Origin: a virus
Reading direction: 5' to 3' (one strand)
Virus record (IMG/VR): IMGVR_UViG_3300035183_000096
Coordinates: 32,001-96,000 of that record
DNA: 64,000 bases
In this document: positions 8,429-62,923 of the stretch, piece by piece
Layout: every line of letters begins with the position of its first letter
Numbering within the stretch: the first letter of the stretch is position 1
Notes under the pieces: generated by a model
The model's database searches: none
Seen by the model: only the letters and a program-made list of their open reading frames with translations
Told to the model about the DNA's origin: nothing
Position numbers and translations under genes: made by a program

Positions 8429-9554
8429 ACTAGACCAAGATACTTTGAAGGCTATCAATGATGCTGTATGCTTGAAGATTGATGGCCTTCTTAGTGTTTT
8501 GGGTTTAGAATTTAATAAGCGTGGTAGATATTATATTGGAACATGCCCAATACATATGGGAGATAATACAACCGCCCTTAATCTTTATCCTGAAGGCTAT
8601 AAAATGAATGGATATTGGAGATGTAACACCAAGCATTGTGAAAAGCATTTTGCTCAAAACATCATAGGTTTTACTAGAGGGGTTCTGTCTAATCGTAGAT
8701 GTAGGTGGACGAGTTCAGGCGGACAGAAATACTCCTTTGTAAAGACTGTGCAATTTTTACTTGATTTTATAGGAGATGAGCTTAGTATAGATTATTCAGC
8801 TATAGACCGTAAAAGGTTTATTAGTGAAGTAGAAACTATAACTAAGACCGCAAGTGTACAGAGTAAAGGCATACATAGGCTGACTGTTAGAAAAGCGTTG
8901 AAAATACCAGCAGAGTATTATATCAAACGTGGATACAGCACAGATGTGCTTGATAGATATGATGTTGGCCTATGCGACAAGGAAGGTAAAGAGATGTTCA
9001 ATAGGATTGTCGTGCCAGTTTACGATAACAAACTTATGATGGTTGGATGTCAGGGTCGCTCTATTCATAAAGAGTGTCCAGAATGCGAGTATCATCATCC
9101 TAGTGGTTGGGCGTGCCCAGAAACAAGAGAAGAGAAGATTAATTGTGCAAAATGGAAAAATAGCAACAATTTCAACGTTGGTCAACATCTATATAACTTT
9201 TGGAACGCCAAACCTTTTATTGAGGACAGTAAAACGGTTATAGTTGTAGAGGGTCCAGGTGATGTATGGAGATTGGAGGAAGCTGGTATTCATAATTCTG
9301 TAGCCATGTTTGGTACAGCTTTTACCGAACAACAAGAAATACTACTTGAAACAAGTGGTGCTACCAGTATTATTATAATGACAGACAACGATGAGGCCGG
9401 GGAAGAGGCTGAAAAAAGAATAAGAAAAAAATGTCAACGTCTCTATAATCTATCAAGACCAAGGTTTGATAAACATGATGTTGGTGAAATGTCTATAACT
9501 GAAATAAGAAATGAGTTATTGCCCATATTTAAGGCGGCTGAACGGAGATTTTAG
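8406..9554 (+). CDS. dnaG: DNA primase (DnaG family)
   Basis: N-terminal CPIH...C...C Zn-binding domain, NRIVVPV..GCQGR, TOPRIM VVEGPGD and DND. Confidence 0.92.
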   Translation: MTRLDLNKLDQDTLKAINDAVCLKIDGLLSVLGLEFNKRGRYYIGTCPIHMGDNTTALNLYPEGYKMNGYWRCNTKHCEKHFAQNIIGFTRGVLSNRRCRWTSSGGQKYSFVKTVQFLLDFIGDELSIDYSAIDRKRFISEVETITKTASVQSKGIHRLTVRKALKIPAEYYIKRGYSTDVLDRYDVGLCDKEGKEMFNRIVVPVYDNKLMMVGCQGRSIHKECPECEYHHPSGWACPETREEKINCAKWKNSNNFNVGQHLYNFWNAKPFIEDSKTVIVVEGPGDVWRLEEAGIHNSVAMFGTAFTEQQEILLETSGATSIIIMTDNDEAGEEAEKRIRKKCQRLYNLSRPRFDKHDVGEMSITEIRNELLPIFKAAERRF

Positions 9555-9555
9555 G

Positions 9556-10329
9556 ATGTCAAAAATTATCGCTTTTTCAGGAAAGAAACAGTCTGGTAAA
9601 AATACAATGGCTAATTATTTAGCTGGCGAAATCTTAGTGCAAAAAGGGGTCATAAGCAAATATGCTATATCTGATAAGGGTGAGTTGTTGGTTCCGGCCC
9701 AAACATCGTATGGAGTAGTGATGGGTAATCTGGATTTGCTTAGACAAGATTCATCTTTTGTTGATTATGCTAGTAAATTAGTCTGGCCTCATGTTAAACT
9801 ATATAGTTTCGCTGAGCCAATCAAAGAAATATGCATGGACCTGTTTGACTTCACTTTTGAGGATGTTTATGGTACAGATGCTCAAAAAGATTCTAAGAGC
9901 AAGTTAAAGTGGGAAAATATGCCTAATTATATGGAGATGAAAATATCTAATAAATCAAAGGCTCCGAAAGGTTTTATGACTAATCGTGAGGTTATGCAAC
10001 ATATAGGTACAGAAATATTTGGGCGTATGTATCCTGATGTATGGGCTAAACATTTAATAAAGCGAGTAAGAAGAGATAGTCCATCCGTAGCTATGATATG
10101 TGATTGTCGTTTCCATAATGAAGTAGCTGTAATACAAGATGCTGGTGGTAAGGTTGTCCGTCTTACTCGTAAAGTTTATGATGACAAACACCTGAGCGAA
10201 ACCTCTTTGGATAAAGATGTGTTTGATTGGTCTAAATTCGACTTGATAGTAGATAATGAAAACCAAACTAAGTTTCAGACCTATCAAGCTATTAAACCTA
10301 AACTTATTGAGTGGGGTATTCTTGCCTAA
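9556..10329 (+). CDS. Deoxynucleoside monophosphate kinase (T4 gp1-like)
   Basis: FSGKKQSGKNT P-loop, SFAEPIK, REVMQ.IGTE, DCRF.NE, HLSE. Confidence 0.85.
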   Translation: MSKIIAFSGKKQSGKNTMANYLAGEILVQKGVISKYAISDKGELLVPAQTSYGVVMGNLDLLRQDSSFVDYASKLVWPHVKLYSFAEPIKEICMDLFDFTFEDVYGTDAQKDSKSKLKWENMPNYMEMKISNKSKAPKGFMTNREVMQHIGTEIFGRMYPDVWAKHLIKRVRRDSPSVAMICDCRFHNEVAVIQDAGGKVVRLTRKVYDDKHLSETSLDKDVFDWSKFDLIVDNENQTKFQTYQAIKPKLIEWGILA

Positions 10330-26585: not shown

Positions 26586-27365
26586 ATGGATAAATTAATA
26601 TTAGATAAAGATTACATTGATGAACATTACTGGAAGCAAGAAAAGAGTATTCATCAAATAGCCGAGGAGTTAGGCACTTATCCTAATAAGGTTCGCAGGG
26701 CTATACTACAACATTATAGTAAACTTAGAGACAAGTCTAAGGCTCAAAGTCTAGCTCTATCACAAGGAAGACACAAGCACCCAACACGCGGCACTAATCG
26801 TAGTCAAGAAACAAAGGATAAGATTAGTTTATCTGTGGCTAGTAAATGGAAGGGTATTTCTGAAGATGAAAGACAACGCCGCGTGAATTTAGCAAAGGAA
26901 AGATGGGCTAGTATGCCAGACGATGGGCGAGCGGAAATGTCAAAAAAAGCTATTGATGCTTTTAGGAAAGCCGCCAAAGAAGGTTCAAGACTTGAGAAGT
27001 TTCTACTTGACGAATTGAGGCGGGCGGGATATAGTGTGATGTTTCACACAGAAGCAATTGCTGAAAGCGAAAAAATGCACGTTGACCTTATAGTACCAGA
27101 GTTACAGGCAGCTATAGAGGTCGATGGGCCAAGCCACTTCTTTCCTATATGGGGAGAAGAGTCTTTAAGACAACACATCCAGTGGGATAATGAAAAAAAC
27201 GGCCTTCTAATCAACGCGGGTTATACAGTCATACGAATCAAAGTTTATGTTAATACAGTATCAAGGCGAGTTGAGCTTGAGGTACTCGATAAACTATTGT
27301 TTCATTTGAAGAAGCTGAAGGACGAAGGATTAACTAAACAATATATAGAAATTGAGGTGAAATAA
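26586..27365 (+). CDS. HTH + NUMOD3-like + Vsr/EDxHD-type endonuclease (homing-endonuclease-like)
   Basis: SIHQIAEELGT HTH, SQETKDKIS, S.LE, VDL, IEVDGPSH, D.EKN..L...GY.VIRI. Confidence 0.75.
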   Translation: MDKLILDKDYIDEHYWKQEKSIHQIAEELGTYPNKVRRAILQHYSKLRDKSKAQSLALSQGRHKHPTRGTNRSQETKDKISLSVASKWKGISEDERQRRVNLAKERWASMPDDGRAEMSKKAIDAFRKAAKEGSRLEKFLLDELRRAGYSVMFHTEAIAESEKMHVDLIVPELQAAIEVDGPSHFFPIWGEESLRQHIQWDNEKNGLLINAGYTVIRIKVYVNTVSRRVELEVLDKLLFHLKKLKDEGLTKQYIEIEVK

Positions 27366-28165
27366 TGGCTAGACCCAAGAAAACTAATAATTTTGGCAAT
27401 CCTGCTGATAGTAACGATACTGGAGATTTTGTAGTGAATACAGATAGTGGAATTAAGTTGGAAGAGATTGCTGCAAGCAAATTGGAGCACCCACTACCAA
27501 CTGACCCTGCATGGCATGATTATGTCATGATGCAATTTGATGAAGCTGAGGTAGATAACAATGGTTATCCTAAAGTAAGCGGGTTGCGCAGAGTTACAGA
27601 ACAACTGTTGGGTGAAATTGTATATTCTGCACCGACACCAGTTAGCGATAGTGCTGATAGGTCATGTGTCATACATACCATTAAAATAAGATTTCCATAT
27701 GAAAATGAACCTAGGGTTTTTGCCGAAATAGCAGATGCCACACCAGATAATATCAAAGGTAATGAAACAAGTAAAGTAGTATCTAAGCACTTACCGGCAA
27801 CAGCTAGTTCAAGAGCCGAAGCTAGAGCTTTAAGAAAGGCGCTTCGTCTCCGTGTTATGTCGGCGGAAGAGGCTACAACATCTTCTGCTGATAAGGTTAC
27901 AAACGACACCGGCTATATTGAACCAGCACAGATTACATTTATTGATATTATGTGTAGGAGAAATAAGATTGATGTTTGGCGATATATAAATAGTCGCGGA
28001 TTTTTGCCAGATGATGGCACTAAATATACTAACATAGAAAAAGTGCCTTATGATAAGGCTATAAAAATGGCTAGGGCTTTAACTAAGATTCAAAATGGAA
28101 CATTACAAATTCCAGAGGATTTAGTGGGATATGACCCGAATTGGCGTAATAAAGGAGAACTATAA
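27365..28165 (+). CDS. Putative single-strand annealing protein (RecT/Red-beta/Rad52 superfamily)
   Basis: GYPKVSGLRR...ATASSRAEARALRKALRL..SAEE pattern resembles SSAP cores. Confidence 0.5.
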   Translation: MARPKKTNNFGNPADSNDTGDFVVNTDSGIKLEEIAASKLEHPLPTDPAWHDYVMMQFDEAEVDNNGYPKVSGLRRVTEQLLGEIVYSAPTPVSDSADRSCVIHTIKIRFPYENEPRVFAEIADATPDNIKGNETSKVVSKHLPATASSRAEARALRKALRLRVMSAEEATTSSADKVTNDTGYIEPAQITFIDIMCRRNKIDVWRYINSRGFLPDDGTKYTNIEKVPYDKAIKMARALTKIQNGTLQIPEDLVGYDPNWRNKGEL

Positions 28166-28473
28166 TGAATTTTCCACCACAAAGTGTGATGATGATGGTG
28201 CCACAAGCTAAACCATCGAAACTTAAGGCTGTAGCTGGTGTTCTTAATCCAGAAACATTGATTGACGTATGGACAGACACTTCTTTTATAGACAAAGATG
28301 TTGTCAAACTTAACCGCTTAACCATTCTTGCTTACAAAGAAATAGAAATGCCAGAAACAAAAATATACAAACTATGGACCAGTGGTGGGTTTGAGTTCTT
28401 CACCAATAATGATAAGTTTAAGAGTGACGACGATGAAAAAGAAAATAAGGATTTGGAAGCTGGGAAATCTTGA
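28165..28473 (+). CDS. Hypothetical protein
   Basis: AAGGAG RBS, TAATG coupling. Confidence 0.6.
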   Translation: MNFPPQSVMMMVPQAKPSKLKAVAGVLNPETLIDVWTDTSFIDKDVVKLNRLTILAYKEIEMPETKIYKLWTSGGFEFFTNNDKFKSDDDEKENKDLEAGKS

Positions 28474-28705
28474 ACATAAGATAATGCCAACCACAAAGAC
28501 GTTTGAGAAGTTTACGCAGTTATTACTAGCAGCTTATGAGCATAATGGTGATACTGACATAATGTGGACGCCTGACATAGAAATGTTTGAGGTAGAGTTA
28601 GATAAAGATGACAACTTTCTGTTAAGTGGGGATATAATAACAAGTTCACAAGAATTACAAGAGTTTATCAAGAAGAAGAGAGGTGGTAACAATGAAGGCA
28701 ATTAG
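28433..28705 (+). CDS. Small protein paralogous to the clip region of this phage's portal
   Basis: IRIWKLGNLEH..P....F.K....L.A.....G..DIMWTPD matches portal IRVWKLGSLEH..P....F.K....L.A....G..DIIWGPD. Confidence 0.8.
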   Translation: MKKKIRIWKLGNLEHKIMPTTKTFEKFTQLLLAAYEHNGDTDIMWTPDIEMFEVELDKDDNFLLSGDIITSSQELQEFIKKKRGGNNEGN

Positions 28706-29108
28706 ACAAATAGGTAATGGTTTGCAATTTGAGGCAGAAGCAGATAGTCAACTTGGTCTATTTAAGGCTCTTGCCGACATCGACAAAACCTATCAGGAAG
28801 TATTCGGCGAAAAACAATGTGGTTGCTGCCAGTCTAATAACATCTTTTTCAATGAAAGAAATGTAGAGAAAGAAGACGCAAAGACAAAGAAAGTTAAGAA
28901 GTACCAATACTTTGAAATGAAGTGTCGTGACTGTTGGGCTACTTTGTCGTTTGGCCAACACCAAGAAGGTGACACACTGTTCCCTAAGCGTAAACTTGAG
29001 AATGGTGAGTTTGATAAAGAACATAGGGGCTGGAAGAGATGGAAGAAGACAGAACAACCTGCTAAGAGTTCAGCAAAGAAAAATGAAGATGATGATGCCC
29101 CATTCTAA
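28692..29108 (+). CDS. Zinc-binding protein with SSB-like acidic C-terminal tail
   Basis: CGCC and CRDC pairs; ends KKNEDDDAPF; GAGGTGG RBS before ATG 28692. Confidence 0.7.
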   Translation: MKAIRQIGNGLQFEAEADSQLGLFKALADIDKTYQEVFGEKQCGCCQSNNIFFNERNVEKEDAKTKKVKKYQYFEMKCRDCWATLSFGQHQEGDTLFPKRKLENGEFDKEHRGWKRWKKTEQPAKSSAKKNEDDDAPF

Positions 29109-53955: not shown

Positions 53956-54966
53956 TTAGAAGCTACCAAGGATAACTCTACGGTTGTCTAATACACCGAA
54001 GCCAATTTCCATCCAGCCACAGTAACCTTGACGACGCTGACGGAACAAGCTATCATCCTCGAAGATTTCCAACTCTTGACGAATTGGCATTACAAAGCTG
54101 TCATTAACACTTAGGTCAAAACCTACCACAAGTTCTCTATCGGAAGTTTGTAGAGCAGCACCAAGTTCATTTAGGTAGTACAACTGATATTCTTGGTCTT
54201 CACCAAGCTCATCGAGTTCGTGTAGGTTGACTCCGAATAGTCTTGTTAAGCCACCGTCGCCTAGTTGATAGATTTCACGACGAGTTACTTCGTCTATTAT
54301 ATCTACGCCCCAATTACGAATATCTTCCTGAGCTTCTGGGGACATATATAGGTCAGTTAGCTTACCGCGGCTGACACTTGTTGAGTTGCCACCGGAGTTA
54401 CGACGCATAACTAGCTTCATAAGAGAAACAAGTCTCTTTGTGAATTGACCTTGGGTTGCGTCAGAATCATATACTAAGATGTTACGGTCAACACCAGCCA
54501 TCAATAGGGTGTGCCAACCATCATCGTTTAACTTCTTGACAAACATGCTTTCAAGAACTTGCATAAACTTTGCAACAATATTCCAACGCGCATTCTTAGC
54601 ATAACGCAATGACCAGTCGATGCTTGCACCAATTTCGTAAGTAGGCATGGTTACGAAGTCGCCTTCTACGAACTTTTGAGGCATCATACCCTGAGATGGA
54701 ACAGCATAAGCAACATACTCACGCTCTGTACCAGGAGCTAAGAAATCCAATGGATATTCTACATATACGCCTGGTTCAAACTTCTCTTGCTGGAAGATGT
54801 TACCAATAATGTCGCCACTCAGAACACCCTTACGAAGAGGGATTTCAAGCGACTTAGCGATTTCGCGTTGTGCAGCAAAAGCTATATAACGGTCATCACT
54901 ACCAGCGTCTCTAAGTGCACACATAGCCTCATCTAGGTCTAAATTATCTATTATTCTATTTTCCAT
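53956..54966 (-). CDS. Major capsid protein (HK97 fold)
   Basis: 336 aa after protease/scaffold and decoration genes; strong terminator downstream; C-terminal G...W.EIGFGVLD..RV; start ATG 54966. Confidence 0.85.
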   Translation of the reverse strand: MENRIIDNLDLDEAMCALRDAGSDDRYIAFAAQREIAKSLEIPLRKGVLSGDIIGNIFQQEKFEPGVYVEYPLDFLAPGTEREYVAYAVPSQGMMPQKFVEGDFVTMPTYEIGASIDWSLRYAKNARWNIVAKFMQVLESMFVKKLNDDGWHTLLMAGVDRNILVYDSDATQGQFTKRLVSLMKLVMRRNSGGNSTSVSRGKLTDLYMSPEAQEDIRNWGVDIIDEVTRREIYQLGDGGLTRLFGVNLHELDELGEDQEYQLYYLNELGAALQTSDRELVVGFDLSVNDSFVMPIRQELEIFEDDSLFRQRRQGYCGWMEIGFGVLDNRRVILGSF

Positions 54967-54982
54967 TTTTAGTTTCTCTCCG

Positions 54983-55453
54983 TTACTTAGGAAGTTCAAC
55001 GTATAGCTTTGCAAAACCGTCAGAGTTCTTACGACTACCGAAGACGCCGACTTGTGGAGTTGCAGTTGCGTTTACGAATGTTGGGGTAACATTACCGTTA
55101 TTGGTTAGATAAGCCTTGTCACCAGCCTTTGGATTACCAGTGATTTTGTTTGTAACAACCCAACCTTTCTGAACGATAGTGACCTTACCACCTGTTTGAA
55201 CTTCTTCTTTATAGAAATTCAAGTGTGTTTGGGTCAAATCCTTATTTACAACGTCTTGTATAATGACACCTAATGGAATAGTGCCACTGGCCGTAGATGC
55301 TACATAGCAAAAGGCTTCTGCGTCATCTAAAGAAACACCAGCGCCACCACTAGGGTCTTGGGCAAATACTACTACTTGACCCTTCTCGGCTAAGCCACTT
55401 GAAAAATAATCAATAGAATCTTGAATAATTAGTCTATCGCCTAATAGAGCCAT
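54983..55453 (-). CDS. Capsid decoration/cement protein (putative)
   Basis: 156 aa between scaffold and MCP; G.VTI...G.V.T, AGD.AYL...G.V beta-tulip-like pattern. Confidence 0.65.
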   Translation of the reverse strand: MALLGDRLIIQDSIDYFSSGLAEKGQVVVFAQDPSGGAGVSLDDAEAFCYVASTASGTIPLGVIIQDVVNKDLTQTHLNFYKEEVQTGGKVTIVQKGWVVTNKITGNPKAGDKAYLTNNGNVTPTFVNATATPQVGVFGSRKNSDGFAKLYVELPK

Positions 55454-57086: not shown

Positions 57087-59228
57087 TTACTCGTCGGTTA
57101 GTCCGATAATACAAGCTACAGCTTGAATGGTTCTTATATCCTCTATACTTGGTTCAGCGTTTACTTTAGTCATAAAATCCAATAGAGTATTAGCATATAT
57201 ACGACGAACATTGTCTGGAACTTGCACTGGATTACTAATAATCCCAGCAACAGTTTCCTCTTCTATTTTTTTAAGAGGCTTAAGATTGGCTAAAACTCTA
57301 AATCTTAACTCTTCAAGAACTTGTGCTTCTTCGTCGCTTAATTGACGTAGATTCTTTTTGCCACATGATTCAAGATACACCGGAGTTAAAATATCTGTTA
57401 TAATTCTTTGAGCTTCTTTAGCCCATGCTACCATAGAAGCAAATTCTGCCTTACTACGAGGCTTGACAATTTTTTGCTTACGCTTATTACTATCCTTTGA
57501 GTTTTTCGGCCTACCTTGTTGTGGTTGTCCTTTTTGTTTAGGACTTCCTGGTAAACCCAAAGGAGCTTTAGGTATGGTTTGTCGCATTAAGATTTTCTTT
57601 GTATCCAAACTACTTTTAATACCAACATCTTCTGGGCGTATTAAACCTCGCTGTAAGGCAATCCTTTTCATTTCTTCAAGATTACCCGTCCTATGGTATG
57701 GAGAGGTTTTTTCTGGTAATGCACCTAACTTACGCTGACGATATTCTCTCTTCATACGAATGTTTTCTAGCTCAGGAATCAGATTAAACCTTTCCATTAG
57801 AGCTTCACCAGAAATAAGGTCGCGGTCAGCTAACTGAACTAATAAAGCCTTTTCAGCGTCTTCACTTGTTAATGAAATCTTATCAAAAACTAATTTGGCT
57901 GGTTCGTTCCAACCTAGAGCCTTCTGTACTAAACGTAGTTGGTGATTCCAGAACATAATTAAGATATTTCTAACATAGTTAAGTCTTTCAATGAGTGTCT
58001 TAAGACTTACAGCGTTGTTAGTAAAACCACCGGAGCTGTCACCAGTAAGTGTGCTAGGAATACCTAAACCAGCATAGATATTACGAAGACTTTGTTCGTA
58101 TTTAGCTGAACCAATAAACTTATCTATATCTGTTGATATTTCTTCAACTTTTAGGTCTGGCCCCCATATGATGTCAATGGTGCCACCAGAACCTAATGCC
58201 ATTAACATATTATTAAGTTTGACGAAAGCCGCTGGACCAGGAACAAATTGGTGTTCCAGGCTACCCAACTTCCACACTCTAATACGGGAAGCAGCAGCAT
58301 CTAACGCCGTTCTATCTGCTAATCTAGCTTTTTGGTAGTCAATTAAATCATCCAATATACAATAATGGATTGGGTCCGCCCATGTTTGCCAATCATCTTT
58401 TTTATAATGATAAACAAACGTTTTATCGTCAGGAAGTGGTATATATTTAGCCCCACTTTTTACTAGACTAAGCAATTCGGCAGGTAAGTTTGCTACAAGT
58501 TCTACTACCTTTGGGTCATTAGTAGAACGCATAGCTCTCATTACATTTTCAGGAACCCTTAAAACATATCTGGAAACACCAACGAAAGCTGCAACTTCCT
58601 CACCAACCACTTCAACATCAATTGGATTAAGAAATGTGTACTTCCAAGGGATTTCGTTTTTCTCTGTTGTAGATAAATCTTCTGGATTGGTAATATCAGG
58701 AGCGGCGGATGTTTTTGTCAACTTTTCTACTCTACGAGCGTTTAATTTAGCTGTAGTCATCTTAACCACAGTATTACCAGCCCTCATAAGTATGTTGGAA
58801 AATCTTTCTGAGCGTTCTTTACCATTTACTTTTTCAAACCAAGCCTTAGCTACCTTATCCTTAGCTTTGTTGGTATGCACAACATTTATGCCCTGAGTAA
58901 CAAAGTCAGACATTAAATCAATTACATTGTGAACGATACCAATTTTACGAGCAGCCTCCATACACTCCTTTATATTTTCTTTTTGCCTACGAGGAGTTTG
59001 CTCATTCTTACGGAAGTAGTAGTAGTCGTTATTAGAGTATCCATCCCTTACAGATACATTGGGAGCTACATTTTGGAACGTATTCCATGCAGAAGAGCGG
59101 TGTATTGGGTCGAAATTTTGTGTAGCATTAGCTGACATAGTTAGGGCTTCGGCCTTACTCTTTGCATTATCCCATGTTATATACATAGGACCAGTTTGAT
59201 GTCTTGTCTTCATATACTTAGCAGGCAT
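57087..59228 (-). CDS. Portal protein
   Basis: Follows TerL; IVHNVIDLM.DF, Y.FLNP, stem-clip-stem arrangement ending IYAGLGIP..L. Confidence 0.85.
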   Translation of the reverse strand: MPAKYMKTRHQTGPMYITWDNAKSKAEALTMSANATQNFDPIHRSSAWNTFQNVAPNVSVRDGYSNNDYYYFRKNEQTPRRQKENIKECMEAARKIGIVHNVIDLMSDFVTQGINVVHTNKAKDKVAKAWFEKVNGKERSERFSNILMRAGNTVVKMTTAKLNARRVEKLTKTSAAPDITNPEDLSTTEKNEIPWKYTFLNPIDVEVVGEEVAAFVGVSRYVLRVPENVMRAMRSTNDPKVVELVANLPAELLSLVKSGAKYIPLPDDKTFVYHYKKDDWQTWADPIHYCILDDLIDYQKARLADRTALDAAASRIRVWKLGSLEHQFVPGPAAFVKLNNMLMALGSGGTIDIIWGPDLKVEEISTDIDKFIGSAKYEQSLRNIYAGLGIPSTLTGDSSGGFTNNAVSLKTLIERLNYVRNILIMFWNHQLRLVQKALGWNEPAKLVFDKISLTSEDAEKALLVQLADRDLISGEALMERFNLIPELENIRMKREYRQRKLGALPEKTSPYHRTGNLEEMKRIALQRGLIRPEDVGIKSSLDTKKILMRQTIPKAPLGLPGSPKQKGQPQQGRPKNSKDSNKRKQKIVKPRSKAEFASMVAWAKEAQRIITDILTPVYLESCGKKNLRQLSDEEAQVLEELRFRVLANLKPLKKIEEETVAGIISNPVQVPDNVRRIYANTLLDFMTKVNAEPSIEDIRTIQAVACIIGLTDE

Positions 59229-59279: not shown

Positions 59280-61397
59280 TTAACTCCTGACGATAACAGA
59301 GAACTTGCAATTTCCATCAACTTGGCTAGAATACCAGTGAGCGCCAAGATACATAGACTGACCTTGACTTTTGCTTACCTCTTCTTTCTTAACTTGTCCT
59401 ACCACGCCTCCGATATTGTGATATTCTGGTTTTTCTGGCGCGCGTTGTATAGTACGAGCCGCCATATTAGCGATAAGAAGTGCGGAGTATCTATCCTTAC
59501 GAAGCCTACCCTTCTTTTGCATACCCGGAGTCTTAATCTCAGGCGTGTCCCAACGCTCGCGACCATTTGAGGTTTGGGTGTGCTGAATACTAGCTAATTC
59601 TTCCTTAAGTTCCTCAATCTCAATCATACAATCTTCAAGAGTATCCTCTCTTGGTACACCATAGTCTTTTTCATACTGGTTATCTTCTTCGCCAGCTAAT
59701 TGTATTTCAACGGCATCAAATCTAGGTAGTAATAGAACCTTGTCTTCAAAGTCTTTTTTCATACCATGATTTGCTTCACTTACCCATTTACCATCTGAGA
59801 AATTAACTAACTCAACGAGATGTAAGCCAGCATAGCTGTCACTATCTTTCGGCTCATCTGGGTCACGAACAGGCCATATTGGCAATTCTCCGGGGTACAT
59901 CTTGTCGGTGTCGTAAAGAGCTTCAGCTACCTCACGCCCGCCGCCTTCAGCATCCATAACAATACGTTCACAAGGGAATGTCTTCATAAGCTCGCGAATT
60001 TTACGGGCACAATAAGCATAAAATTGATGTTCTTTAATAATACCCTTTTGAAACTTTTCCTTAAATCTTTTCCTATCTGTTGTCCAAACATAAACAACAC
60101 GACGATGTTCCGGCCAAAGCTCAAGTAAGGTTATAGCAAAATTATCGCGTTCGGAGGCTGGGTCAATTCCATAAACATATCTACGTTTTGGATGACCTTT
60201 AATAGTAGCAGAAAATTGCACTGGAATACCACTTATATAGATTGGGTGGCGGGTAACGCATGTTTCAACTAATGTACGCTTAAAAAAACCATCACTGTCG
60301 CCCACAAAGACTGCTCCGTACTCCATTTCATAAGCTGCTTTGTGTAAGGTAGCTTTGTTAGAAGCAATCTGGGTGGCGTCAAAGTAACCTTCTTGTAGTA
60401 AGTCAACGGGTATGCGAATTATACAATAATCTTTCCAGTTAAGGGCAGCCATATTTTCGGTATCACCGCCCATCATTTCAGCCAACTTGGCTTGATTACC
60501 TTTGCTTGAAATAATAGCTTTATACTTCTTCCAATACTTAGCAAAATTACGAAAGCTATATGATGCTGTGCCGGAGATGATAACCTGATTACGTTTGGAC
60601 TCAAACAATTCTTTTGCTCTTACTTGATTATCTTCGTTAATAAAACCTAACTCTTGCATAGCCTTATAGCTTGCTTTACGCTCCATATTCTCAATTGGGT
60701 TGTCTGATACAACAGTAAAACCTTTAATAACGGTTTCAAAAATTTCGGTATCAATAGCATCAAACTCATCAGCAACAATAGTGTTGGCGCGCAAACCTCT
60801 AATCTTCTCACCATTACCAATAGGTAGAGCAGTAATAACACTGTCAGCCAGAATCATTTCATGACGGTCTATATTACGATGTGGGCCATTTCTTAAGCCA
60901 CGGGCACCAGTATCACCAAGTAAATCTCTTAATATATCTGCCTTATACCATATAGTTTCACCATACTCAGACAATAATTTACTTTGACGAAAACCGGCGC
61001 CCGTTAGAATAATCTTTGAGCCTTGTTTAATAAGGCCTTTATACATAACATAGAACGCTAATGTAAAGGTCTTAGACATACCACGACTACCCACCAATAA
61101 TGGAAATGGGTGGTCCCACAACAACCTAATTAAAGCCACCTGCATTGGCGACAATTTTACATTAAAAATATGTTTAGCTGTAAAATGAACGTAGTTTACA
61201 TCAGTAATAAGTTTAACTAGATACTTATGTGGTCTCTCTATATCCTCACGAGTAATGTGAGCTAGAGGATTATCAATTTCCCGGCCTATTAAATCAGGTA
61301 AGTTTAACCACGCTCTTTTTACATACTGTTTCGCTAACTCTGGGTCACTTTTTATTTCTTCTAGGCTTAGTCGCGGGTCTTTCTTTTTCGCGCTCAT
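59280..61397 (-). CDS. terL: Terminase large subunit
   Basis: L.P.Q adenine-binding motif, Walker A GSRGMSKT, IRGLRA, Walker B IVADE, SGTA, RNase H YGIDPA, KDRYSA. Confidence 0.92.
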   Translation of the reverse strand: MSAKKKDPRLSLEEIKSDPELAKQYVKRAWLNLPDLIGREIDNPLAHITREDIERPHKYLVKLITDVNYVHFTAKHIFNVKLSPMQVALIRLLWDHPFPLLVGSRGMSKTFTLAFYVMYKGLIKQGSKIILTGAGFRQSKLLSEYGETIWYKADILRDLLGDTGARGLRNGPHRNIDRHEMILADSVITALPIGNGEKIRGLRANTIVADEFDAIDTEIFETVIKGFTVVSDNPIENMERKASYKAMQELGFINEDNQVRAKELFESKRNQVIISGTASYSFRNFAKYWKKYKAIISSKGNQAKLAEMMGGDTENMAALNWKDYCIIRIPVDLLQEGYFDATQIASNKATLHKAAYEMEYGAVFVGDSDGFFKRTLVETCVTRHPIYISGIPVQFSATIKGHPKRRYVYGIDPASERDNFAITLLELWPEHRRVVYVWTTDRKRFKEKFQKGIIKEHQFYAYCARKIRELMKTFPCERIVMDAEGGGREVAEALYDTDKMYPGELPIWPVRDPDEPKDSDSYAGLHLVELVNFSDGKWVSEANHGMKKDFEDKVLLLPRFDAVEIQLAGEEDNQYEKDYGVPREDTLEDCMIEIEELKEELASIQHTQTSNGRERWDTPEIKTPGMQKKGRLRKDRYSALLIANMAARTIQRAPEKPEYHNIGGVVGQVKKEEVSKSQGQSMYLGAHWYSSQVDGNCKFSVIVRS

Positions 61398-61866
61398 TAA
61401 CTAATTCCACCATTCTTTTCATTAGACAGGAGGCTATACGATGACCGTTACCACTTCCGGCCAATATAAACTTGGTTTTGTACTTAAGTTGAAACTCCAT
61501 CAACTTTGCAAGAATAAGACGTGGGGATATTTTTGCCAAACTCTTCCAATACATTTTTGGTATGCCAGAATTTTCGGGAAAGTTAAGGATGTCATCCATA
61601 TTAAACTCTAAGACAACATATGGAAACTCAAACTCCTGTAATCTCTCTAATTCTTTTATAAATCTTGCCTCAAGTATATTGCGGGAAAACTCTGATGTAT
61701 TTGCCTTACGCTCAATAACAAATATGTTTTCCAAACCCTTTAACGTATAATCACCAGTTGGTAAGGCTTCAATTACTGTACCATTACACCAATCGCAAGG
61801 ACTAAACATCCATCCATGCCCCTCCTTTTCCCTTGTGTCTCTAACTACTGTATATAGTTTATTCAT
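61345..61866 (-). CDS. ERCC4/XPF-like nuclease
   Basis: RDTREK, LPTGDY, IERK, RF..ELERL. Confidence 0.85.
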   Translation of the reverse strand: MNKLYTVVRDTREKEGHGWMFSPCDWCNGTVIEALPTGDYTLKGLENIFVIERKANTSEFSRNILEARFIKELERLQEFEFPYVVLEFNMDDILNFPENSGIPKMYWKSLAKISPRLILAKLMEFQLKYKTKFILAGSGNGHRIASCLMKRMVELVNEREKERPATKPRRNKK

Positions 61867-62923
61867 TATTATTACACCTTTGAATATCATGATTAACCAT
61901 TTCATAAACAAGTTCATCAAAACTTATAGTAGTCTTCCAACCAAGTTTTTCGCGCGTATAGGTGCTATCACCTAATAAGTACGGCACTTCAAGTGGACGA
62001 ATAAACTTAGGGTCTATTTCTACGATTTTAGCAAGAGAAAGGTTAGGAATATAATAAGATGAATGATTTGATAACCATCTTACGAAAACCGCATATGCTT
62101 TTTCTAAGAACTCTTGTATTGTATGAGTTTCCATAGATGAAAATACAAAGTCTTCGGGCTTATCGAGTTGCATCATACGCCAAAAACCGTCAACACAATC
62201 GCGGGCGTGCGACCAATCGCGTTTGGTTGTTAATGTACCCAAATGTAGTTTTGGATAGTTCATTTCGCCTGTAAGATTAAAGATAACTTTATCGTTTATA
62301 ATAGCAGCGGCTAACTCACCAAAGTATTTAGTTATCTTACGAGTAACAAAGTTTTCGCCGCGTCTTGGGCTTTCATGATTAAAGCATATGGCGGACGCCG
62401 CATATAAGCCAAAACTCTCTCTATAAACTTTAGTCATTTGGAAAGCCGCTGTTTTAGCAACAGCATAAGGACTACGAGGATTAAAAGGTGTTGTTATACG
62501 TTGGTGCCCATCATCATCACAGGCATCGCCGAACTGTTCGCTAGAACCAGCATAAAAGTAACGGGTATCAGGCTTAATGGTGCGAATTGCTTCAAGACAA
62601 TTTAAGCACCCTACCGCGGTAGATTGAAAACACGATGAAGGTTCAGCCCAACTAATGTGAACGTGACTCATAGCGGCAAAATTGTATATTTCATCCGGCT
62701 TAACTTCGCTTATGATTCGAGTAACAGAACCGGCGTCAGTTACATCGCCGCTATGTAAATGAATTTGATTTAATACTTTAGGCTCAAATCTGGTTGTATT
62801 TGGTACTGAGGTGCGTCTAGCCACACCATGTACGTCATATCCTTTAGCAAGAAGGAAATCAGTCATATATGAGCCATCTTGTCCTGTGATTCCGAATATC
62901 AACGCTTTCTTTTTATTCACCAT
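61859..62923 (-). CDS. gmd: GDP-mannose 4,6-dehydratase
   Basis: GITGQDGSY, PDEIYN.AA.SHV..S, SSE.FG, PRSPYAVAK, FNHESPRRGENFVTRKI, RDWSHA.D. Confidence 0.96.
   Translation of the reverse strand: MVNKKKALIFGITGQDGSYMTDFLLAKGYDVHGVARRTSVPNTTRFEPKVLNQIHLHSGDVTDAGSVTRIISEVKPDEIYNFAAMSHVHISWAEPSSCFQSTAVGCLNCLEAIRTIKPDTRYFYAGSSEQFGDACDDDGHQRITTPFNPRSPYAVAKTAAFQMTKVYRESFGLYAASAICFNHESPRRGENFVTRKITKYFGELAAAIINDKVIFNLTGEMNYPKLHLGTLTTKRDWSHARDCVDGFWRMMQLDKPEDFVFSSMETHTIQEFLEKAYAVFVRWLSNHSSYYIPNLSLAKIVEIDPKFIRPLEVPYLLGDSTYTREKLGWKTTISFDELVYEMVNHDIQRCNNNE

Follow-up and report, generated by a model that had tools for sequence, protein, structure and literature searches.

A small phage protein homologous to the clip segment of the portal is a member of an old, unnamed family of stand-alone portal-clip paralogs

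Why should a phage carry, in a separate small gene, a free-standing version of one segment of a portal protein? The clip is the only part of the portal to protrude from the capsid; it docks the packaging motor and then the tail, and it is also read by bacterial immune proteins. The question is raised by a gene in the 64,000-nucleotide stretch of DNA analysed here (the window), which comprises bases 32001-96000 of a 126,592-bp virus record (IMGVR_UViG_3300035183_000096) with direct terminal repeats, rated 100% complete. This mini-clip gene, here called the mini (28433..28705, + strand), encodes 90 aa between an ATG start and a TAG stop. It lies where the replication arm ends, a long way from the packaging genes; that it forms a gene of its own, on the arm opposite to that of the portal, had been stated in a preliminary description made from the sequence and holds. 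An AAGAG box is found 8 nt 5' of the ATG. The mini shares its first 41 nt with an upstream ORF in a different frame, and its stop overlaps the start of the following gene, an ATG at 28692. The upstream ORF (28165..28473, +; 102 aa) and the one preceding it (27365..28165, +; 266 aa, 55% identical to its counterpart in locus L189) belong to no known family, and the order of all three genes is kept in L189. An HNH-endonuclease-like ORF (26586..27365, +; phrog_559, E 2.1e-7) lies two genes upstream of the mini. Contigs from two sequencing runs of another study, X3 and X4, are ~94% identical and have 27 other letters in place of 28168-28354, which is most of the upstream 102-aa ORF; among the sequencing runs listed as holders, none was of RNA. 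The start was assigned to M1 and not to the later Met (M18) of the gene caller because a 90-aa protein with 82% identity, P0001, keeps M1 and has Ile at position 18, because L189 retains the same overlap with the upstream gene, and because X4 carries an in-frame 18-nt insert supplying AAGGAG and an ATG just before the same N-terminus (as P0001).

The homology of the mini to the part of the portal that separates the stem helices was confirmed. BLASTP aligned its residues 4-59 (28442..28609, +) with residues 315-369 (58122..58286, -) of the 713-aa portal protein (57087..59228, -) with 23/56 identities (41%), 35/56 positives, one gap and an E value of 8e-14; the earlier alignment of 28445-28594 with 58283-58137, made by hand at about 21/50 identities, was therefore correct. 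The clip-homologous core, seen also in the structure model, runs from strand 1 (I-R-I-W-K-L-G) through a conserved loop and the helix at residues 21-36 to strand 2 (D-I-M-W-T-P-D) and a further strand. A profile of 143 minis matched the window's portal at E 6.6e-23, and a profile search of the whole genome of the phage revealed two copies of the clip only, one in the mini and one in the portal. When the mini was compared with 80 related IMG/VR portal loci, the same segment was matched in 80/80 with 31-51% identity, and many of these portals matched it better than the phage's own portal does. The mini itself has no PHROG or Pfam match. It is no full-length portal, which would have wing, stem and crown in about 700 aa: it has 90 aa, and only the clip segment aligns.

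The portal gene was identified by phrog_2739 (E 3.9e-8), by the fold of its product and by 367 IMG/VR relatives, and it adjoins the gene of the large terminase (59280..61397, -; phrog_2, E 1.5e-24), whose product may be a ligand of the clip. Among PDB sequences nothing matched a 39-portal profile at E <= 1. The top PDB matches found by Foldseek with the AlphaFold (AF2) model of the portal, built with 39 relatives, were all portals, 29 of them with E <= 1e-3. The order of elements in this model is a helix at 292-313, the mini-like segment at 314-372, a helix at 374-388 and a long helix at 409-438, so the position claimed for the segment, exactly between the two predicted stem helices, was upheld. 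The pLDDT of the clip segment in the portal monomer model is low (36-65). According to the available parts of PMC4493910 and PMC12847820, the clip of a portal connects the two stem helices and is made up of three strands and a single helix. Since the segment of the window's portal lies between the stem helices and before the long wing helix, the predicted topology supports its assignment as the clip domain (residues 315-369).

Modelled alone with a 143-member alignment, the mini folded with a pLDDT of 84.2 into a strand (residues 3-10), a helix (21-36), a second strand (49-56) and a second helix (72-84). A Foldseek search with this model gave no match at E <= 1e-3. After re-alignment of the Foldseek list, portals occupied the top 11 rows (Z 2.8-5.6), and in an independent alignment to 48,161 representative PDB chains the top 12 were all portals, one of them from RcGTA (Z 3.6-5.7). 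Stretches of the mini model from 1-55 up to 1-90 mapped to the mid-chain region of each portal. In the P23-45 portal the match covers residues 236-295, and the clip helix is placed at residues 263-275 in the available part of PMC7234808. Given the modest Z scores (<= 5.7), the fold supports the sequence evidence and would not stand alone. The term clip-only used in that description does not hold strictly, as the mini shares with its subfamily a conserved tail helix (residues 72-84; 28646..28684, +), inside a net acidic tail, which is conserved in P0001, P0005, P0006, L189 and L190. The mini has the features of this window-like subfamily, namely alignment over the full length and a C-terminal helix followed by a basic patch: residues 1-93 of P0006 align with mini residues 1-90, and P0001, P0005, L189 and L190 have the same tail.

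Although the preliminary description knew of no described gene of this kind, the mini is a member of an old, large and unnamed family of portal-clip paralogs in uncultured phages of ~120-190 kb. An exhaustive profile search of 1.84 billion protein representatives gave 452 matches at E <= 1e-3. Among the best 150 of these 452, 141 were short stand-alone proteins of 51-174 aa, the others being the window's own protein, one piece of a portal and seven proteins of at least 200 aa, four of them full portals (664-733 aa). In 99 of the 142 short proteins (the 141 and P0001) the conserved first strand begins no more than 7 residues from the first Met, and the family members are therefore not portal pieces cut off by contig ends. 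Word searches recovered much less: that restricted to near-length proteins gave P0001 as the single relative, and a word-index search with the family profile gave only 33 short proteins, far below the full scan, with no name beyond 'hypothetical protein'. None of the 143 family members matched PHROGs at E <= 0.001; a Pfam scan of the 143 gave only four unrelated families with one member each (E 0.007-0.01), and NCBIfam gave one chance-level match among 10 proteins scanned, of which 8 were minis. No match was obtained among INPHARED phages for the portal, the mini or P0165, in IMG/VR by a pattern scan with the single mini or by a scan for P0164, or in a metagenome scan for the Tat-type protein P0026. 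In GTDB species genomes no relative was found, none of 5 pattern matches being confirmed, and so these genomes hold no prophage copy and no clue to the host. Twelve loci collected with the DNA pattern for M-K-I-R-L-W-K-L-G were rejected as chance matches, for none of them scored with the family profile. An Atlas look-up yielded no lead (best feature score 0.79, structure TM < 0.5). The literature searched, supplements lying outside the search, held no description of free-standing clip genes. The clip domain itself is known, and Pfam, PHROGs, NCBIfam and the literature searched yielded no entry for its free-standing form as a gene family.

The conserved stand-alone ORFs for which the preliminary description proposed to look in related phages are thus present, and their core residues are kept: W8, L10, G11, P19, W45 and P47 occur in at least 90% of 143 sequences. 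The strands taking part in the predicted pairing described below are conserved in minis as much as in portals. Minis, like portals, retain the polar loop that follows strand 1 (S-L-E-H-K), at 51-86% in the minis. They have lost the loop that joins helix and second strand in portals, where its conservation is 79-100% (67 portals). Beyond the second conserved strand the tails are hypervariable (median 37 aa, range 4-88) and are net acidic in 90% of members. Three proteins (P0004, P0077 and P0108) have two clip-like domains in one chain. A regular-expression and hydropathy test called a Tat-type leader, with twin arginines and a hydrophobic stretch, before the core in 16/142 representatives and a hydrophobic leader in 4 more; by this prediction, roughly one representative in eight would be exported from the cytoplasm. 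The window's mini has no Tat leader and begins 4 residues before the first strand. When a single origin of the leader was tested, the Tat label needed 14 changes among 18 on a poorly resolved tree.

A duplication of the portal of this same genome, which the preliminary description had considered possible, was not borne out. When 211 distinct cores, 144 from minis and 67 from portals, were placed on a likelihood tree (55 columns), a single branch separated minis from portals with an SH-aLRT support of 77; the resolution inside each side was poor, the columns being few, and a single origin of the minis, with a support of only 77 from 55 columns, is suggested by the sequences. When the portals were ranked by likeness to the mini over the 55 core columns, the phage's own portal came 46th of 64 in the case of the window's mini, 53rd of 64 in that of L022 and, by a small margin, 1st of 64 in that of L097/L099. 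The derivation of the window's mini by copying of its own portal was rejected on account of the 46th rank. Since one branch splits the two kinds and the window's own portal is not the closest, the mini represents an old paralog lineage and not a recent fragment. Another candidate, that portal clips had diverged to escape the mini of the same phage, was not taken further. Compared with the clip consensus, the portals of three mini-bearing phages rank 2nd, 6th and 1st from the bottom among 67, and they are divergent overall; after regression on the rest of the protein the mini-bearers rank 2, 60 and 3 of 117, the lowest (L007) being without a mini, a mixed result from n = 3.

The mini is a functional gene retained under selection. 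In other members of the family dN/dS (Nei-Gojobori) was 0.32 for L194 versus L198, a pair with 68% identity; two other pairs, which are more distant and close to saturation, gave 0.23. The test of dN/dS proposed earlier thus came out in favour of selection in these other members (0.23-0.32). When the portal segment was drifted neutrally to 41% identity, the frame stayed open in just 67/2000 trials. Homologs that were absent or decaying had been named as grounds for refutation; the frame is kept in P0001 (82% identical), in X3 and X4 (~94%), where the mini is open though most of the upstream ORF has been replaced, and in L189 (38%). A recent non-functional portal fragment, brought in by recombination or homing-endonuclease traffic and now decaying, is thus a very improbable origin, already largely refuted: it could draw on the HNH-like ORF two genes upstream of the window's mini, the L262 mini between two HNH genes, the truncated copy beside the intact one in L191 and the scar in L099, but the own portal is only 41% identical and 46th of 64 in likeness, the minis form one side of a single tree branch, core residues are kept in at least 90% of 143 sequences, dN/dS is low, and the frame, rarely surviving neutral drift, is kept in all these relatives.

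The genomic contexts of the minis are varied. In 160 IMG/VR portal loci, a mini was found within 8-10 kb of the portal on only 2 distinct contigs, L022 and L097/L099, the last two being identical. None of ten other large relatives with the same portal family carries a mini (0/10; 5 of them at least 89% complete), nine having been searched with the profile and one (G005) with a single protein only. Among the 75 loci obtained in a metagenome scan, 13 had minis. The packaging operon was the context in 7/11 cases with recognisable neighbours. In L022 the mini is directly between TerL and the portal; in L097/L099, L244, L217 and L199 it lies just upstream of a GDP-mannose dehydratase gene (gmd), followed by an ERCC4-type nuclease, TerL and the portal; in L193 it is between gmd and the nuclease; and in L262 it lies, in the same packaging operon, between two HNH genes (phrog_374, E 2e-63 and 4e-62). 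The minis of the window, L189, L261 and L206 (4/11 contexts) are among early genes. Wherever neighbours could be recognised, the phage is related to that of the window and shares its TerL, portal or early genes. For the Tat-type minis there is one context, L213, in which the mini lies in a series of small ORFs, and one of these has a Sec-like signal. Adjacency to HNH genes varies: they flank the mini in L262, are nearby in L099 and two genes off in the window, and the minis of L022, L244, L217, L193, L199 and L189 had no such gene beside them. L199 has two minis in tandem. In L191 a truncated mini fragment lies beside an intact copy, and in L099 the second conserved strand bears a recombination scar.

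The minis are predicted to pair head-to-tail through their two conserved strands. Four copies folded together gave ipSAE values of 0.60, 0.67 and 0.34 (median 0.60; best of 3 controls 0.00) with a tool calibrated on two copies and not on four, whose mark was reached by 20/30 solved pairs and 1/23 single chains. The runs agreed in at least 82% of contacts, with a partner pLDDT of 61-71. The tightest predicted contacts are between residues 40-49 of one copy and 4-11 of the next, forming an in-register parallel pair, and the predicted interface is formed by precisely those two motifs that minis and portals alike conserve. The strand pairing predicted in trans for the mini matches the three-stranded sheet formed in trans between subunits of the T4 clip, as described in the available part of PMC4493910. 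Given this predicted pairing, the mini could form arcs or rings, or cap a portal protomer. The pass in this calculation may reflect the model's memory of solved portal rings; the result indicates likeness and not binding.

A self-pairing mimic of the clip is the best-supported mechanism and, in our judgement, leans towards being the right one. The mini family has kept the two strands that weld neighbouring subunits in the portal ring, plus the loop between them, and has dropped the portal-specific loop and gained variable, mostly acidic tails. Through the conserved strands a mini would pair head-to-tail with itself and possibly with portal protomers, and the paired minis would copy the surface of the clip and the clefts between its subunits. 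Such a soluble mimic could compete for a reader of the clip, whether terminase, the adaptor tails, unassembled portal or a host portal sensor; target and role are what we infer. Ligands of the clip are known from other phages. In T4 gp17 binds the clip, and the gp20 clip peptide 288-311 binds gp17 and inhibits packaging (work cited in the available part of PMC4493910); adaptor tails bind in clefts between adjacent clip subunits, according to the part of PMC12407722 at hand; and the accessible text of PMC12847820 describes SpbK docking and clustering on the clip ring of YonE, and EcAvs4 binding the stem, clip and wing of portal monomers. Against the self-pairing mimic, the leader-bearing members should act outside the cytoplasm, without a known clip ligand there, and the export leaders of 16/142 representatives are explained by no reading as a cytoplasmic decoy. 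Also, because the portal loop between helix and second strand is lost, minis could not mimic the contact with terminase or adaptor if that loop is the contact. The acidic tails of the family do not fit the reading as a mimic, and neither does the distance of the window's copy from the packaging genes.

The patchy distribution, the shuffled tails, the tandem copies and the HNH neighbours suggest an accessory, conflict-type role rather than one in core assembly. That the mini serves in conflict, as an immune decoy or shield or as a weapon against co-infecting phages, is a possibility that we hold with considerable doubt. It would then be a dedicated, self-assembling soluble copy of the portal clip ring used as a weapon or shield, a picture to be taken as tentative. 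Such a copy would soak up host sensors that read portal clips (SpbK- or Avs4-like), or would act on co-infecting rivals by trapping their terminase or adaptor or by poisoning their portal ring; the exported forms would serve a similar purpose in the periplasm.

The mini could alternatively be a housekeeping cofactor of assembly or packaging, for example a chaperone that covers the free strand edges of portal protomers up to ring formation, or a regulator that keeps terminase back until proheads are ready. The place in the packaging operon in 7/11 readable contexts, with the L022 copy directly between TerL and the portal, would fit such a cofactor, as would the equal conservation of the pairing strands in minis and portals and the predicted strand pairing itself. 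However, the mini is absent from the 10 other large relatives with the same portal family, 5 of them at least 89% complete, and only 2 distinct contigs among the 160 IMG/VR portal loci have one within 8-10 kb; the tails are hypervariable, the position in the genome varies, and 16/142 representatives have export leaders. We consider a housekeeping role unlikely. A little less likely again is that the mini has only its descent in common with the clip and is now a generic small oligomerising scaffold, with its specificity residing in tails or leaders and a function unrelated to portal ligands, for example periplasmic superinfection exclusion by the exported forms. This would account for the Tat-type leaders (16/142), for the L213 copy among small ORFs of which one has a Sec-like signal, for tails that differ in length (4-88 aa) and sequence, for the two-domain proteins P0004, P0077 and P0108 and for the loss of the portal-specific loop. 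It sits less well with contexts that are all, where recognisable, in related phages with the same TerL, portal or early genes and are mostly in the packaging operon, and with the retention of the S-L-E-H-K loop at 51-86% in minis, as in portals; since this polar loop is kept in both, a surface shared by minis and portals is suggested.

A large, selected family of clip copies means that phages make a soluble look-alike of the docking site. The self-pairing mimic would offer a handle on how terminase and adaptor recognise the portal, on nucleation of the portal ring and on whether portal-sensing immunity is blunted by mimics. The minis are tiny and are predicted to fold well and to self-associate, and so should lend themselves readily to expression and testing. 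A second use of the fold, an unexpected one, is hinted at by the exported variants. If the reading as a conflict gene is true, mimics of structural-protein domains would be a new class of phage conflict genes.

Comparison with known systems places the mini beside the clips of portals, which comprise residues 279-358 in T4 gp20 and 270-325 in SPbeta YonE, with the clip helix at 263-275 in P23-45/G20c. The mini resembles them in its sequence homology to the clip of its own phage, in the same order of strand, helix and strands and in having portals as its best fold matches. It differs in being a separate gene of 90 aa without stem, wing and crown, in which the loop from helix to second strand has been lost and an acidic tail with its own helix has been added. 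The immune proteins SpbK and EcAvs4 read the clip (PMC12847820, in the part available), so that, by analogy, a copy of the clip could compete for them; the difference is that no such sensor is known for the host of the window's phage. A clip copy might also trigger a portal sensor rather than block it. The T4 gp20 peptide 288-311, known here through the available part of PMC4493910, is a synthetic laboratory peptide from an unrelated portal family, whereas the mini is a natural gene whose mimicry would be analogous. The peptide is the only experimental precedent found for the idea of a decoy, and the likeness is that part of the clip, detached from the portal, works in trans on a ligand of the clip.

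The clip of the window's portal (58122-58286) ranked second of 67 in divergence from the family consensus and, once overall divergence was allowed for, had the second lowest residual among 117. Two other contigs bear a mini, the stand-alone homologue of this domain; their portals ranked first and sixth in divergence, and third and 60th by residual. Immediately 5' of the window's terL, on the minus strand within 61345-62923, the packaging operon carries a gene for a GDP-mannose 4,6-dehydratase (gmd; PF16363, E 6e-102) together with one for an ERCC4-type nuclease (phrog_3490, E 1e-13). The order gmd, nuclease, terL was common to four related loci (L099, L244, L262 and L193). No small terminase was recognisable. 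Also on the minus strand, within 53956-55453, a 155-aa protein matched two families of cement or minor capsid proteins, PF23982 and PF22758 (E about 1e-6), and its 351-aa neighbour gave a weak match to a major head protein (phrog_2522, E 2e-5).

Around the window's mini, the upstream 102-aa ORF appears to be dispensable, because contigs of about 94% identity, assembled from two sequencing runs of another study (X3 and X4), have 27 other letters in place of 185 bases at 28168-28354, which make up most of this ORF, yet retain the genes on either side. The product of the next gene after the mini (28692-29108) is 138 aa long, contains two pairs of Cys residues and is acidic at its C-terminus; no family was found for it in Pfam or PHROG. 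An HNH-like ORF was located at 26586-27365. HNH genes were also present at related loci: one at L099:4810-5118, and paralogous endonuclease genes on either side of the mini at L262:5758-7590 (phrog_374, E 2e-63 and 4e-62).

Duplicated and truncated copies of the mini were found at two further loci. L199 carries a tandem pair of mini genes (2-175 and 165-359) directly ahead of gmd, and in L191 an intact mini (9998-10192) is preceded, at a distance of 0.5 kb, by a truncated fragment (9396-9521). At L099:3590-3690 the gmd ORF opens with the closing part of a mini, comprising everything from its second conserved strand onward. Since the family protein P0067 is the uninterrupted counterpart of this arrangement, with the mini core fused to the same stretch, the L099 junction resembles a scar left by recombination at this strand, which would offer a route for swapping mini tails.

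Several family members, P0026, P0033, P0049, P0054, P0076, P0088 and others, as well as the product of L213:233-598, possess a twin-arginine (Tat-type) leader. In these members a linker of 20-30 aa separates the leader from the clip core, an arrangement which implies, as a prediction from sequence, that a folded copy of the clip would be exported to the periplasm.
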